Made by a program: the position numbers and the translations under genes
In this document: positions 27,947 to 52,744 of the stretch, one piece after another
Layout: every line of letters starts with the position of its first letter
How positions within the stretch are numbered: position 1 is the stretch's first letter
The notes under the pieces: model-generated
Seen by the model: the letters and a program-made list of their open reading frames with translations, nothing else
What the model was told of the DNA's origin: nothing
Databases searched by the model: none
Source: Gammaproteobacteria bacterium
GTDB taxonomy: Bacteria; Pseudomonadota; Gammaproteobacteria; DRLM01
Direction: 5' to 3'
Assembly: GCA_023266095.1 (NCBI GenBank)
Contig: JAHFRV010000001.1
Span: 64,110-128,109 of the forward strand
Length of the DNA: 64,000 nt

Positions 27947-30697
27947 TCATTCGAACCCATATCTAAAATCCCCACTGTCCACGCTCACCTGCACCCGTTC
28001 CACTTTGCTGCCTTCCAACATCCGTGTCAGAAACTCCTGACTGATGCGCGGCAGCATGGTATTGGTCAGAATCGCGTCGACGACCCGCGCGCCGCTTTCC
28101 ACTTCGCGGCAGCGGTCGGCGATCAGTTCGATGACCGCGGCGTCATAAGTAAATGGGATGCGGTGATTCTCCTTGATGCGTTTGTCGATGCGGCCAAGCT
28201 GGAGTTTGATGATGAGCTTGAGCACCTCATCGCTCAGCGGGTAGTAGGGAATCGTCACCATGCGGCCCAACAGGGCCGGGGGAAACACCTTGAGCAGAGG
28301 CGCGCGCAGGGCCTGAGCCAGGGATTCCGCGTCGGGCATCAGCTCCGGGTCGTGACACATACTCATGATGAGTTCGGTGCCGACATTAGTGGTCAACAGA
28401 ATGAGAGTGTTCTTGAAGTCGATGTAACGTCCTTCCGCATCCTCCATCCAACCCTTGTCGAAGATCTGAAAGAAAATCTCGTGGACGTCGGGATGGGCCT
28501 TTTCCACTTCGTCCAGCAGCACCACGCTGTAGGGTTTGCGCCGCACGGCCTCGGTGAGCAGGCCGCCTTCGCCGTAGCCGACATAACCCGGCGGCGCGCC
28601 CTTGAGCGTCGAGACGGTATGCGCCTCCTGGAATTCACTCATGTTGATGGTGATGACGTTTTGCTCGCCGCCGTAAAGCGCCTCGGCCAAGGCCAGCCCG
28701 GTTTCGGTCTTGCCGACGCCGGAAGGACCGGCAAGCATGAACACGCCGATGGGTTTGTTGGGGTTGTCGAGGCGGGCACGCGCGGTCTGGATGCGGCGCG
28801 CGATCATGTCGAGCGCGTGGCGCTGGCCGACGACGCGCTGGTTGAGGGTCTCGGCGAGGCGCAACACCGCCTCGACTTCGTTCTTGACCATGCGACCCAC
28901 CGGAATGCCGGTCCAGTCGGCGACGACCGTGGCCACCGCCTGAGCGTCGACACTCGGCAGGATCAGTGGCCGCTCGCCCTGTACCCGGGCGAGTTGGGAT
29001 TGCAGCTCATTGAGCTGTGTCAACTGGTCGGCCTGATCCTTATCAGCGACGGCGGATGCCGCTTGTGTCGAATCGCTGTCCACACCCTGGGCCGCCGCAT
29101 CGGCGGCCCGTTCCAGCGCGCTGGGCGTGCCCTCGACCTTGCCCAGCCGAGCCCGCAACTGCCCACGCAACGCGAGTATCTGCTCCACCAATGCCTTCTC
29201 CGCCCGCCAGCGCGCTTCGATGCCGCCGAGACGTTCGCGTTCGGCATCGAGTTTGAGCGTCGCCTCCGCCTCGCGCTGTGCGGTATCGATACCCACCGCA
29301 TGCTCACGCGCGATGATGTCGAGTTCGGTCTGCAGCGCTTCGATCTTGCGCCGACTGTCTTCGACCTCGGCCGGTATCGCGTGCTGACTCACCGCGACGC
29401 GCGCGGCGGCGGTATCGAGCAGGCTCACGGCCTTGTCCGGCAATTGACGTGAAGGGATATAGCGATGGGAAAGCTTGACCGCGCCCTCGATGGCCTCGTC
29501 CAGCACCTGCACCCGGTGGTGCTGCTCCATGACCGAGGCCACGCCGCGCAACATCAAAATGGCTTTGTCCTCGCTCGGCTCATCGATCTGGACCACCTGA
29601 AAACGCCGCGTCAGCGCCGGGTCTTTTTCGATGTACTTCTTGTATTCGCTCCAGGTGGTGGCGGCGATGGTGCGCAGCGTGCCGCGCGCCAGCGCCGGTT
29701 TAAGCAGATTGGCGGCGTCACCGGTGCCGGCGGCGCCGCCCGCGCCGATCAGGGTATGCGCTTCGTCGATGAACAGGATGATGGGTTTGGGTGAAGCCTG
29801 TACCTCCTCGATCACCTGACGCAGACGCTGCTCGAACTCGCCCTTCATGCTCGCGCCGGCCTGCAACAGACCGACATCCAGGGTGCGGATGGAGACGTCC
29901 TTGAGGCTGGGCGGCACATCGCCGCGGGTAATGCGTTGGGCAAAGCCTTCCACCACTGCGGTCTTGCCGACGCCGGCCTCGCCGGTGAGGATGGGGTTGT
30001 TCTGCCGACGCCGCATCAGGATGTCGATCATCTGCCGGATCTCGTTGTCGCGGCCGACGATGGGATCGAGTTCTGACTTACGCGCCCTTTCGGTGAGATC
30101 GATGGAAAAGCGTTGCAGCGCCTCCTGCTTGCCGAATTGCGCCGGCGCGATGGCACCGCTCGCCTCGCCCGGCGCCGCGGCGGCACCCAAAGCGCTGCTG
30201 TCGCTGGGTCCCATACGGTCCTCGGGTGAGCCATGGACGATCTGGGCGTAGCGATCGGAAAGAGTGTCGAGTTTGATTCTGTCGAATTCGCGCGAGATGG
30301 CGGGCAACGCGTTGCGCAGGCCCGGCGTCTTCATAATGCCCACCACGAGATGACCGGTGCGGACCTGCGCTTCCTTGTACATGAGCGTGCCATACACCCA
30401 GCCGCGTTCCACCGCCTCCTCCACATGGGCCGACATATCGGAAATGGAGGTGGCGCCGCGCGGCAGCCGGTCCAGGGCCTCGGTGAAGTCTTTGACCAAC
30501 CGTGCCGGGTTGATCTCGAAGAACGTGATGATGCGATGCAGATCCGAGTCCTGCAATTGCAATATTTGATGCAGCCAGTGCACCAGCTCCACATAGGGGT
30601 TGCCCCGCAGTTTGCAGAAGACGGTGGCGGCCTCGATGGATTTGTAACCGAGGCTATTGAGCTTGCCGAATAAGGCGATGCGACTGATCTCTGCCAT
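27947..30697 (-). CDS. clpV: T6SS AAA+ ATPase ClpV (TssH)
   Basis: 916 aa; ClpV N-domain, two AAA+ modules with Walker A GEAGVGKT / GPSGVGKT. Confidence 0.95.
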   Translation of the reverse strand: MAEISRIALFGKLNSLGYKSIEAATVFCKLRGNPYVELVHWLHQILQLQDSDLHRIITFFEINPARLVKDFTEALDRLPRGATSISDMSAHVEEAVERGWVYGTLMYKEAQVRTGHLVVGIMKTPGLRNALPAISREFDRIKLDTLSDRYAQIVHGSPEDRMGPSDSSALGAAAAPGEASGAIAPAQFGKQEALQRFSIDLTERARKSELDPIVGRDNEIRQMIDILMRRRQNNPILTGEAGVGKTAVVEGFAQRITRGDVPPSLKDVSIRTLDVGLLQAGASMKGEFEQRLRQVIEEVQASPKPIILFIDEAHTLIGAGGAAGTGDAANLLKPALARGTLRTIAATTWSEYKKYIEKDPALTRRFQVVQIDEPSEDKAILMLRGVASVMEQHHRVQVLDEAIEGAVKLSHRYIPSRQLPDKAVSLLDTAAARVAVSQHAIPAEVEDSRRKIEALQTELDIIAREHAVGIDTAQREAEATLKLDAERERLGGIEARWRAEKALVEQILALRGQLRARLGKVEGTPSALERAADAAAQGVDSDSTQAASAVADKDQADQLTQLNELQSQLARVQGERPLILPSVDAQAVATVVADWTGIPVGRMVKNEVEAVLRLAETLNQRVVGQRHALDMIARRIQTARARLDNPNKPIGVFMLAGPSGVGKTETGLALAEALYGGEQNVITINMSEFQEAHTVSTLKGAPPGYVGYGEGGLLTEAVRRKPYSVVLLDEVEKAHPDVHEIFFQIFDKGWMEDAEGRYIDFKNTLILLTTNVGTELIMSMCHDPELMPDAESLAQALRAPLLKVFPPALLGRMVTIPYYPLSDEVLKLIIKLQLGRIDKRIKENHRIPFTYDAAVIELIADRCREVESGARVVDAILTNTMLPRISQEFLTRMLEGSKVERVQVSVDSGDFRYGFE

Positions 30698-30759
30698 GGC
30701 ACTTTCCTTTATCTCTCAAAAATTGAGCCGGTGGGGCGGCGTCACCCCGCCATCGCCAT

Positions 30760-31002
30760 TCAACCTTGACCAATTAATACTTCGAGTGAAGGATCTATTC
30801 CCTCTACACGGATAGCCATGTATGCATCAGCAAGAACCCCGAATGCCACGTTAAGTTCTGTCCACTGATCACCCGCTTCAGCGGACTGTTCTTCGGAGGG
30901 ATCATCTTCGAGCATTTCCTCGCAAGCGGCCATTTGAGCTGAAATAGCGCGAATTGCTGTTGCCAAAACATTTGGAGGAATATTAATCATATGTTGCTCC
31001 AA
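30760..31002 (-). CDS. Small acidic helical protein (80 aa), candidate immunity protein (Tsi2-like by size and charge)
   Basis: Abuts the upstream 162-aa ORF with zero gap; acidic composition; AT-richer than flanking T6SS genes. Confidence 0.4.
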   Translation of the reverse strand: MEQHMINIPPNVLATAIRAISAQMAACEEMLEDDPSEEQSAEAGDQWTELNVAFGVLADAYMAIRVEGIDPSLEVLIGQG

Positions 31003-52196: not shown

Positions 52197-52213
52197 CCCG
52201 TTACCGTCCGTGT

Positions 52214-52744
52214 TTATTTTTCGGCGAATACCGCCTGCACGGCGAGGCGCTCGATGCTGATGTTCAACACCCGTTCCTTCTTGGCGAAGGGATTGAGCTT
52301 GCTCATGAGACCGGCTTTCTTCTCGCCCACCTCGACCAACCCACGCCACTGTGATTGATCGATATCGCGAAAAGCCACGGCAACGCCGAGAAAATGCGTC
52401 TCCGCATCGAGTTCGAGGGGGAGATCACGGCTCTCGGCCGGGCGCAGCGTGATTTCGTCGCGACGGACCAGCTCCGCGCCTAGGGTCGCCTGCTCCTGTT
52501 CGTAGAGGGGAAAGAAATCCGTCTTCTGAAAGGCGCTCGCACCGCGCAATTGATAGATGCGCACCACCACCGGTGAGGCGCGGCCGTCGTGATCGGGATT
52601 GACCGTGCTTGCCGCCACGACATGCGTAGCGAGTTTTTCCACCACGGCACCGGACCGCCCGGACTTCGCGCCGCCCGCACAACCACCGATCAGGGCCACA
52701 CCCAGACACAAGCTTGCCAAACCGATGAGTCCACGCGCACTCAC
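52214..52744 (-). CDS. tssJ: T6SS outer-membrane lipoprotein TssJ
   Basis: 176 aa; lipobox LIGGC; ...PVVVRIYQLRG... TssJ signature. Confidence 0.85.
   Translation of the reverse strand: MSARGLIGLASLCLGVALIGGCAGGAKSGRSGAVVEKLATHVVAASTVNPDHDGRASPVVVRIYQLRGASAFQKTDFFPLYEQEQATLGAELVRRDEITLRPAESRDLPLELDAETHFLGVAVAFRDIDQSQWRGLVEVGEKKAGLMSKLNPFAKKERVLNISIERLAVQAVFAEK

Follow-up and report, generated by a model that had tools for sequence, protein, structure and literature searches.

How does a secretion machine come to carry its toxins between the very genes that encode it? This question is raised by a stretch of 64,000 nt (hereafter the window; positions 64,110 to 128,109, forward strand, of contig JAHFRV010000001.1, assembly GCA_023266095.1). 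Here, 15 genes of a type VI secretion system (T6SS) and one open reading frame (ORF) of 89 aa lie between positions 27947 and 52744, all co-directional on the minus strand, with two-gene inserts at five junctions between core genes. Each insert holds a candidate effector followed by an immunity candidate. We consider it highly likely that the region, the five cassettes included, is the main cluster of an H1-like (TagJ-containing) T6SS on the chromosome of an uncultured member of the Pseudomonadota known from a metagenome-assembled genome, where it is located between tsaC/purD and hemF. What we say below about the function of the locus is read from its sequence. The genes of the machine are:

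27947..30697, minus strand: clpV (tssH), 916 aa; Pfam AAA_2, AAA_lid_9 and ClpB_D2-small; 65-81% identity to ClpV of related clusters
31566..32612, minus strand: tssG; Pfam T6SS_TssG, E 4e-107
32576..34450, minus strand: tssF; Pfam T6SS_TssF, E 1e-240
35529..36032, minus strand: tssE; Pfam GPW_gp25
37442..38254, minus strand: tagJ (ImpE/HsiE1); Pfam ImpE; PDB HsiE1 4uqx, E 6.5e-84
39340..39825, minus strand: hcp (Hcp1-like); Pfam T6SS_HCP; PDB PA0085 1y12, E 7e-62
39907..41406, minus strand: tssC; Pfam VipB and VipB_2
41410..41949, minus strand: tssB; Pfam T6SS_VipA
42022..43038, minus strand: tssA, short, 338 aa; Pfam ImpA_N
43308..43577, minus strand: orf89, with a C-terminal hydrophobic segment; called as a gene in two assemblies; coding-like, with a GC content at third codon positions (GC3) of 0.69
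43716..44486, minus strand: pppA (PP2C phosphatase); Pfam PP2C_2
44470..45228, minus strand: tagF; Pfam TagF_N
45231..48737, minus strand: tssM; Pfam IcmF-related_N, IcmF-related and IcmF_C
48740..50050, minus strand: tssL (DotU plus OmpA-like domain); Pfam DotU and OmpA
50865..~52196, minus strand: tssK, likely start MSWNNK; Pfam T6SS_VasE, E 1e-153, from residue 70 of the longest ORF
52214..52744, minus strand: tssJ lipoprotein; Pfam T6SS-SciN

Read along the minus strand, the order is tssJ, tssK, (insert 5), tssL, tssM, tagF, pppA, orf89, tssA, tssB, tssC, hcp, (insert 4), tagJ, (insert 3), tssE, (insert 2), tssF, tssG, (insert 1), clpV. Twelve of the 13 core components TssA-TssM are present at full length, VgrG (TssI) being the one not found. 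All 15 T6SS ORFs are full length, with matches that span the whole profiles and with high GC3. A preliminary description of this DNA, made from the sequence, had proposed an H1-type core of 16 co-directional genes. Both points hold: Pfam accounts for 15 of the 16 as T6SS genes, orf89 being the other, and the matches of TagJ to HsiE1 and of Hcp to PA0085, together with the gene order, place the core in the H1 type. The two blocks, tssJ-K-L-M-tagF-pppA and tssA-B-C-hcp-tagJ-E-F-G-clpV, have what we take to be the H1-T6SS order, following the established arrangement of PA0074-PA0091.

To place the inserts in context we used 80 related TagJ-containing loci from species-representative genomes, spanning Competibacter, Contendobacter, Chromatiaceae, Sedimenticola, Methylococcales, Myxococcota, Planctomycetota and others. 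In these relatives too, tagJ lies between hcp and tssE. For each junction we measured the number of nucleotides between consecutive core genes, n being the number of loci usable for that junction. The five inserts, with the corresponding gaps in the relatives, are:

30698-31565: insert 1, tssG/clpV junction; GC 0.484; gap 868 nt in the window, median 46 nt in relatives and above 400 nt in 6 of 66
34451-35528: insert 2, tssE/tssF junction; GC 0.502; gap 1078 nt in the window, median 14 nt in relatives, maximum 69, n=76
36033-37441: insert 3, tagJ/tssE junction; GC 0.482; gap 1409 nt in the window, median 22 nt in relatives, maximum 77, n=79
38255-39339: insert 4, hcp/tagJ junction; GC 0.516; gap 1085 nt in the window, median 120 nt in relatives, maximum 552, n=73
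50051-50864: insert 5, tssK/tssL junction; GC 0.458; gap 814 nt in the window, median 15.5 nt in relatives, maximum 174, n=26

Four of these five junctions are thus essentially never filled in related loci, and only tssG/clpV is a recurrent cargo site. At that site one relative has a Tae4-like gene (L061; judged by eye from the sequence), two have small low-GC ORFs to which no family could be assigned (L071 and L053), and another H1-like cluster (L083) has a pair homologous to the effector and immunity genes of insert 2, together with an M23 peptidase. The inserts also stand apart in composition, with a GC content of 0.458-0.516 against 0.629 for the core genes, and a GC3 of 0.33-0.63 for their genes against 0.71-0.80. 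Every 900-bp stretch of the window with a GC content below 0.52 lies in one of the five inserts or in a remnant of an insertion sequence (IS) near 53 kb. The GC profile is therefore not flat, and the five AT-richer two-gene inserts of the preliminary description are confirmed, both as GC and GC3 outliers and as gaps relative to other loci. None of the ten cassette genes has a homologue (E<=1e-5) in the 80 related loci; the conserved cluster thus does not include the cassettes, and their horizontal acquisition at core-gene junctions is supported. A search for attC-like sites or flanking repeats common to all five cassettes, by repeat search and by blastn of the inserts against their flanks, returned a duplication at insert 3 only.

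Could the inserts have been put there by the assembler? In a metagenome, low-GC pieces might be stitched into a T6SS cluster by mistake, and one ENA assembly does break inside tssL, at about 49.57-49.60 kb. We regard such a mis-assembly as extremely improbable. The segment from 30.8 to 48.2 kb, holding inserts 1-4, is identical in an independent Logan assembly of another run (SRR14366785). The 129-kb NCBI contig carries these proteins, and a second ENA contig joins insert 5 to tssK, tssJ and the flank. Moreover, a related organism has the same insert 2 cassette at the same junction, and all inserts lie exactly between ORFs, none of which is disrupted. As for the break itself, the ENA assembly of the same sample, ERZ27280116, splits within tssL (~49570-49600) into k141_1813747 and k141_7335264, with about 30 nt in common. 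Variation between strains near insert 5 may be the cause, or else an assembly break; at this place the window owes its continuity to the 129-kb NCBI contig.

The genes of the five cassettes, each effector (E) with its immunity candidate (I), are:

31003..31491, minus strand: E1, Tse2-like toxin, 161-162 aa; Pfam ADPRTs_Tse2 PF18648, 37.6 bits against a cut-off of 26.6
30760..31002, minus strand: I1, Tsi2-like cytoplasmic immunity candidate, 76-80 aa, acidic, without signal peptide; GC3 0.33
34991..35488, minus strand: E2, pseudogene of a TseH-like permuted NlpC/P60 cysteine hydrolase family; in-frame TAG at 35276-35278
34629..34994, minus strand: I2, lipoprotein immunity candidate, 121 aa, intact; lipobox ISSC, read directly from the sequence
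36726..37220, minus strand: E3, GH24 phage-type lysozyme, 164 aa; Pfam Phage_lysozyme, E 5e-28, above cut-off
36312..36716, minus strand: I3, LprI-type lysozyme inhibitor with signal peptide, 134 aa; Pfam LprI, E 4e-12, 46.9 bits against a cut-off of 22
38809..39252, minus strand: E4, Tae4-family amidase, 132 aa from the ATG at 39207; Pfam Tae4 PF14113, 54.7 bits against a cut-off of 27
38333..38797, minus strand: I4, lipoprotein immunity candidate, 148-154 aa; lipobox VVSC, read directly from the sequence
50363..50848, minus strand: E5, Tlde1-type effector with an L,D-transpeptidase fold, about 152-161 aa; Pfam Tlde1_dom PF10908, 110 bits against a cut-off of 30.1
50073..50366, minus strand: I5, membrane-anchored immunity candidate, 97 aa; two hydrophobic segments, read directly from the sequence

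Four of the five effectors belong to named families and the fifth, E2, to a known fold; the four are intact, with their catalytic motifs in place where these could be checked. The best PDB match of E1 is Tse2 (5ako), with G-x-S-V-F-D-R aligned to the T79/S80 region, where E1 has V-S, and homologues of E1 carry PF18648 as well. The best and only PDB match of I1 is Tsi2 (4c18), a weak one (E 0.07). I1 also matches NCBIfam Tsi2_fam below the cut-off, and these two weak matches point independently to a Tse2/Tsi2 pair, with which the position, the size and the missing signal peptide of I1 agree. For E4, the best PDB match is Tae4 (6ijf), in which the catalytic Cys (NQC / NTC) and His (GDHIDL / GGHIDL) are aligned. 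E5 contains the segment H-x8-S-K-G-C (FRLHPKTGFGISKGC) and found no match in a PDB sequence search, so that its assignment rests on Pfam. The predicted locations of the immunity candidates match the targets of their partners: I1 is cytoplasmic, and I2 to I5, which accompany the cell-wall enzymes, are exported or membrane-anchored. Peptidoglycan is the predicted target of four of the five effectors, and the export signals of their immunity proteins fit an action in the periplasm.

The cassette at the tssE/tssF junction is a special case. The TAG at 35276-35278 cuts the 165-codon frame of E2 into 70 and 94 codons in translation, and the same stop is found in the independent Logan assembly. The preliminary description had counted five toxin and immunity pairs; five pairs there are, with an immunity candidate after each effector, but this toxin gene is a nonsense pseudogene. 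The stop replaces a conserved Tyr71 (SRYY to SR*Y), a position that is Tyr or Phe in an alignment of 33 homologues, in which His22, His43, Cys97 and an acidic D-x-D-D segment are invariant. We rejected the alternative that E2 represents two real small genes, because the 33 intact homologues have Tyr or Phe at this position instead of a stop, and the relative described below has TAT. E2 matched no Pfam or NCBIfam model; its family has a permuted papain-like fold with a His...Cys dyad. The closest fold is that of Vibrio cholerae TseH (VCA0285), partner of TsiH, with which E2 shares only about 12% sequence identity and no Pfam model. A database search returned homologues in 147 clusters of intact proteins of about 162 aa, up to 83% identical and all annotated as hypothetical.

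The contexts in which these homologues occur are informative. The 83%-identical one is at the tssG/clpV junction of L083, followed by a 121-aa gene; another sits in an Rhs-associated array (L084), and in L128 an N-terminally extended homologue begins 6 nt downstream of a 971-aa VgrG. Many further copies form pairs that stand alone, without any T6SS gene less than 10 kb away. In about 40 of 80 metagenome loci a homologue of I2 comes after that of E2, and the immunity gene changes much faster (29-63% identity for I2 against 43-85% for E2). We take this as evidence for a T6SS effector family with a lipoprotein partner. The cassette draws attention to a widespread, uncharacterised family whose fold resembles that of TseH, which no Pfam model covers and which has a lipoprotein as its conserved partner.

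In which order were the cassettes gained? The closest relative is represented by two Logan contigs (L170 and L171), with identities to the window of 71% for TagJ, 82% for TssE, 83% for Hcp and 94.5% for TssC. It shares the E2-I2 cassette at the same tssE/tssF junction, and only that one; the other three junctions visible in it (hcp/tagJ, tagJ/tssE and tssG/clpV) are closed. Because this relative shares its cassette, insert 2 is probably the oldest of the five. L171 has TAT where E2 of the window has TAG, and the L170 copy has its own 1-nt insertion (about L170:1956) and a separate stop, as read from the contig. The effector gene E2 has decayed, perhaps repeatedly, next to an immunity gene that remained intact, which makes the cassette an example of recurrent effector loss with retention of immunity. 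Inserts 1, 3 and 4 would have been gained later, in the lineage of the window. The comparison therefore gives a relative timing of acquisitions, with one cassette common to the nearest relative and already decayed, and others later. The tssE/tssF insert of L170 is longer, at about 2.1 kb, and behind the I2 homologue it contains one more ORF (148 aa, L170:2700-3470), the N-terminus of which resembles a signal peptide. The shorter insert 2 of the window, with 178 nt after I2, suggests a deletion.

Another question regards how a cassette could enter a junction as tight as tagJ/tssE. On either side of insert 3, the lysozyme/LprI cassette, stands one copy of the tagJ-tssE junction, both in direct orientation and about 205-215 nt long. 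Such a copy covers the final ~105 nt of tagJ, the spacer between the genes and the initial ~78 nt of tssE; the two are:

35956..36160, minus strand: copy A, the real tssE 5' end with a decayed tagJ 3' fragment (36053-36160)
37341..37546, minus strand: copy B, the real tagJ 3' end with a duplicated tssE 5' fragment (37341-37418, called as a 42-aa ORF)

Three repeat families (D1, D3 and D5) make up the duplication, with a spacing of 1385-1386 nt and 88-92% identity, and there are two 1-nt indels in the tagJ fragment. Blastn against the flanks found no such repeats around inserts 1, 2, 4 and 5. A distant donor was considered and rejected, since the copies are about 90% identical to each other and equally far (about 67%) from the junction of the nearest relative. 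The duplicated DNA is therefore local or derives from a very close strain. Such a duplication is what we would expect from single-crossover integration of a circle carrying the junction and the cassette, or from unequal exchange between sister clusters, and recombination between the repeats could excise the lysozyme cassette precisely.

Food for speculation is whether this footprint reflects a more general process, in which core-gene junctions act as homology-guided landing pads. A cassette captured next to such a junction would circularise or enter by transformation, and one crossover would then place it at the corresponding junction of a related cluster, with a duplication left behind that permits precise excision. 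Repeated rounds would build an integron-like arsenal distributed along the operon and co-expressed with the Hcp1-type tube, which would carry these small effectors. We consider this generalisation unlikely. If it were true, the locus would record the mechanism by which effector-immunity modules are gained and lost within a cluster.

A further point regards the projectile. The preliminary description had reported no vgrG, PAAR, fha or ppkA gene in the window, and pppA and tagF without the PpkA kinase or its Fha target; our searches agree on both counts. Neither vgrG nor fha was detected in the window by tblastn, for which five divergent VgrGs and two Fhas of relatives served as queries. A motif scan for ppkA detected no Ser/Thr-kinase motif there, PAAR strings occurred in non-coding frames only, and none of the large window ORFs was assigned by Pfam to VgrG, PAAR or Fha. 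Precomputed Pfam annotation of about 10 kb beyond each window end held no T6SS-related families. Among the 80 relatives, vgrG is found within 10 kb of tagJ in 10 loci and not in the other 70, and Fha in 28, either directly before tssJ or between divergent blocks. For this clade, then, it is nothing unusual to have no vgrG close to the cluster, whereas the lack of an fha beside tssJ is less ordinary. The proposal that the missing carriers mark a cargo-type weapon is not supported by this comparison, given how few relatives have a nearby vgrG. Firing of a T6SS needs the VgrG spike. VgrG is also required for assembly of the Hcp tube (PMC8262886). Either another part of the genome must therefore encode the spike protein, or the system does not work. 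PppA and TagF, present here without PpkA and Fha, are perhaps remnants, or they may work with partners that are encoded elsewhere.

How, then, might the locus work? In the reading we prefer, that of an H1-like T6SS with five cassettes, the cassettes would be co-transcribed with the machine genes, and the intact effectors would be exported as non-covalent cargo of an Hcp/VgrG/PAAR projectile; neighbouring bacteria without the matching immunity would be killed. The VgrG spike, any PAAR and any Fha/PpkA would be encoded elsewhere in the genome. Loading into the Hcp lumen would be the most likely route for E1 and possibly for other effectors. The cassettes would have been acquired stepwise, the one at tssE/tssF first, and at least the lysozyme cassette would have entered, or been rearranged, in a recombination event from which some 205-215 nt at the junction of tagJ and tssE emerged in two copies.

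Several observations weigh against this reading. I1 scores below the curated cut-off of NCBIfam Tsi2_fam (E 4e-5, 23.9 bits, cut-off 70). I2, I4 and I5 have no family match (for I4 and I5, none in Pfam or NCBIfam), and their role is deduced from position, export signals and, for I2, also conserved pairing. Consensus scans for cassette-borne promoters and terminators gave counts no higher than in shuffled sequence, so that co-transcription of the cassettes is presumed. The E2 pseudogene and the IS remnants flanking the cluster indicate that some decay is under way. Neither VgrG nor PAAR nor Fha turned up in some 84 kb in total, so that function depends on genes outside. Finally, homologues of E1 and E2 occur in VgrG/PAAR contexts (a Tse2-like one in the PAAR/VgrG island of L177, an E2-type one in L128), and TseH rides on PAAR2 (PMC8406194), so the window effectors may travel in the Hcp lumen or on VgrG/PAAR.

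This last point bears on a narrower proposal, namely that the cluster is specialised for small effectors carried in the Hcp lumen, which would explain the lack of vgrG, PAAR and Rhs carriers. All effectors are 132-165 aa long, no spike genes were found in about 84 kb, and the Hcp1-like Hcp of the window keeps all six lumen residues L28, A29, S31, T59, S115 and T122. These are inner-ring residues of Hcp1 that are important for Tse1-3; Tse2 fills the Hcp1 lumen, Tse1-4 bind Hcp1, and S31 is specific to Tse2 (PMC8262886). Tse2 and other H1 effectors are Hcp1 cargo. The identity of the lumen residues may be mere conservation across Hcp1-type proteins, which speaks against treating Hcp loading as settled. 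We see an Hcp-only weapon as somewhat unlikely, although Hcp-lumen delivery of window effectors as such is plausible. Since VgrG is structurally required for the tube, its absence here means that it is encoded elsewhere, and the 70 related loci without a nearby vgrG show the same pattern. Size alone, from which the preliminary description had deduced Hcp-lumen cargo, is not decisive in view of the L128 gene directly after VgrG, the loading of TseH on PAAR2 and the Tse2-like homologue in a PAAR/VgrG island.

A different reading is that of a decaying or defensive locus, in which the T6SS fell silent after IS-mediated loss of the end that carried vgrG, PAAR, fha and ppkA, with the cassettes kept for immunity against related attackers. 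Remnants of transposases are indeed found at both ends of the cluster:

27052..27327, minus strand: C-terminal remnant of a transposase just downstream of clpV; ORF translation ...ALANKNARVIWAVLSRGENY; presumably IS110-like, judging from sequence resemblance
53496..53741, plus strand: IS5/DDE transposase remnant upstream of tssJ; ORF translation; precomputed Pfam DDE_Tnp_1_2, weak

This reading also draws on the nonsense mutation in E2 beside an intact immunity gene, on the independent lesions of the L170 copy, on pppA and tagF without their partners ppkA and fha, and on L177, which has PAAR, VgrG and Fha after clpV where the window has an IS remnant. We nonetheless hold it to be quite unlikely, as none of the 15 T6SS ORFs is broken and all have high GC3 and match their profiles over the full length, as four effectors are likewise intact and have their catalytic motifs wherever these could be assessed, and as many functional T6SSs have vgrG in satellite islands. 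The two transposase remnants occupy the spots where relatives have vgrG/PAAR (after clpV) and fha (before tssJ). In L177 (L177:6931-20468), an H1-like relative, a long accessory island after clpV holds an M35 peptidase, a Tse2-like pair, PAAR, a TPR-methyltransferase, a GH19 + LprI pair, VgrG, DUF6931 and Fha; in that relative, one end of the cluster houses the same kinds of cassette that are interleaved in the window.

Returning to the reading of an H1-like T6SS with interleaved cassettes, one of the closest described systems is the H1-T6SS of Pseudomonas aeruginosa. The window shares with it TagJ/HsiE1, an Hcp1-like Hcp, a short TssA, tagF, pppA and both block orders, as well as a Tse2/Tsi2-like pair and small peptidoglycan-degrading cargo effectors (the H1 cargo being Tse1-4). 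It differs in that the P. aeruginosa cluster consists of two divergent operons (fha...ppkA and tssA...vgrG), whereas the blocks of the window run head-to-tail on one strand. This co-directional tssL-M-tagF-pppA-tssA layout is also found in L056 (Methylomonas), L071 (Crenothrix) and L072. Furthermore, no fha, ppkA, tagQRST or vgrG was found in or near the window cluster, and the tse genes of P. aeruginosa are dispersed over the chromosome, whereas the effectors of the window lie inside the core operon.

That effector-immunity pairs can sit between T6SS core genes is established. In Salmonella pathogenicity island 6 (SPI-6), Tae2, Tae4, Tge2 and Tlde1 modules lie between core genes in the regions VR1-VR3, which are strain-variable and have no obvious mobile elements (PMC10469887). 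The window resembles SPI-6 in having small peptidoglycan-targeting cargo modules in the main cluster, the Tae4 and Tlde1 families among them. SPI-6 has few multi-gene regions (after tssC, after tssM and at the Rhs end), in contrast to the five single-cassette insertions here, and the baseplate-gene junctions used in the window (tagJ/tssE, tssE/tssF and tssK/tssL) are empty in all 26-79 relatives examined of the 80-locus set. The 'hcp island' of Pantoea agglomerans T6SS1 has modules directly downstream of hcp, including Tae4/Tai4 and lysozyme-like/LprI, with orphan immunity genes after effector loss, and the mechanism of its integration was termed 'yet-to-be-defined' (PMC9796082). Tae4 and lysozyme/LprI modules and the retention of an immunity gene after effector loss are common to both systems. 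Pantoea has a single island with arrays, whereas the window has one pair per junction and one cassette with the footprint of a duplicated junction. In V. cholerae, horizontally acquired effector-immunity modules enter T6SS clusters via homologous conserved flanks, and old immunity genes are kept when their effectors have been lost (PMC5361080). Those modules replace each other at the 3' end of the cluster, whereas the modules of the window are intercalated between core genes, and the junction duplication fits single-crossover integration rather than replacement. As for TseH, it is loaded on PAAR2 in V. cholerae (PMC8406194), while its counterpart E2 here is a pseudogene.

Two features are unusual here. 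One is the degree of interleaving, with one pair inserted at each of five junctions, three of which are closed in all relatives examined of the 80-locus set; the other is the preserved junction duplication. The locus leaves our understanding of how a T6SS works unchanged. With it, the idea of a 'variable region' or 'hcp island', known from enterobacteria, reaches an environmental H1-like T6SS and also junctions between baseplate genes, which are normally translationally tight. The junction footprint bears on the integration of cassettes, a question that the Salmonella and Pantoea papers leave open (PMC10469887, PMC9796082). The locus is, moreover, compact and legible, with a secretion machine and five toxin-immunity pairs, four of them directed against the cell wall, in what reads as one operon.

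A few neighbouring genes complete the picture. Within the cluster, orf89 has no Pfam match and no homologue in the 80 related clusters; it lies between pppA and tssA, where ppkA would come after pppA in the H1 order. Directly downstream of clpV, in a stretch of lower GC beside the IS110-like remnant, 27269-27793 (minus strand) encodes a 174-aa protein with a clear signal peptide and no Pfam match, which could be an orphan immunity gene or unrelated cargo. A 921-aa ORF at 14989-17754 (minus strand) was considered as a VgrG and rejected, having a lipoprotein-type N-terminus, no Pfam match and no similarity to the VgrGs of relatives; this predicted lipoprotein sits between purH and multicopper-oxidase genes. 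The large ORFs of the flanks encode DsbD, an unassigned lipoprotein and a DUF7948/SBBP/DUF11 protein, and the flanks otherwise consist of housekeeping genes, namely groEL, accC, purH, purD, tsaC, hemF, typA and tsaD.

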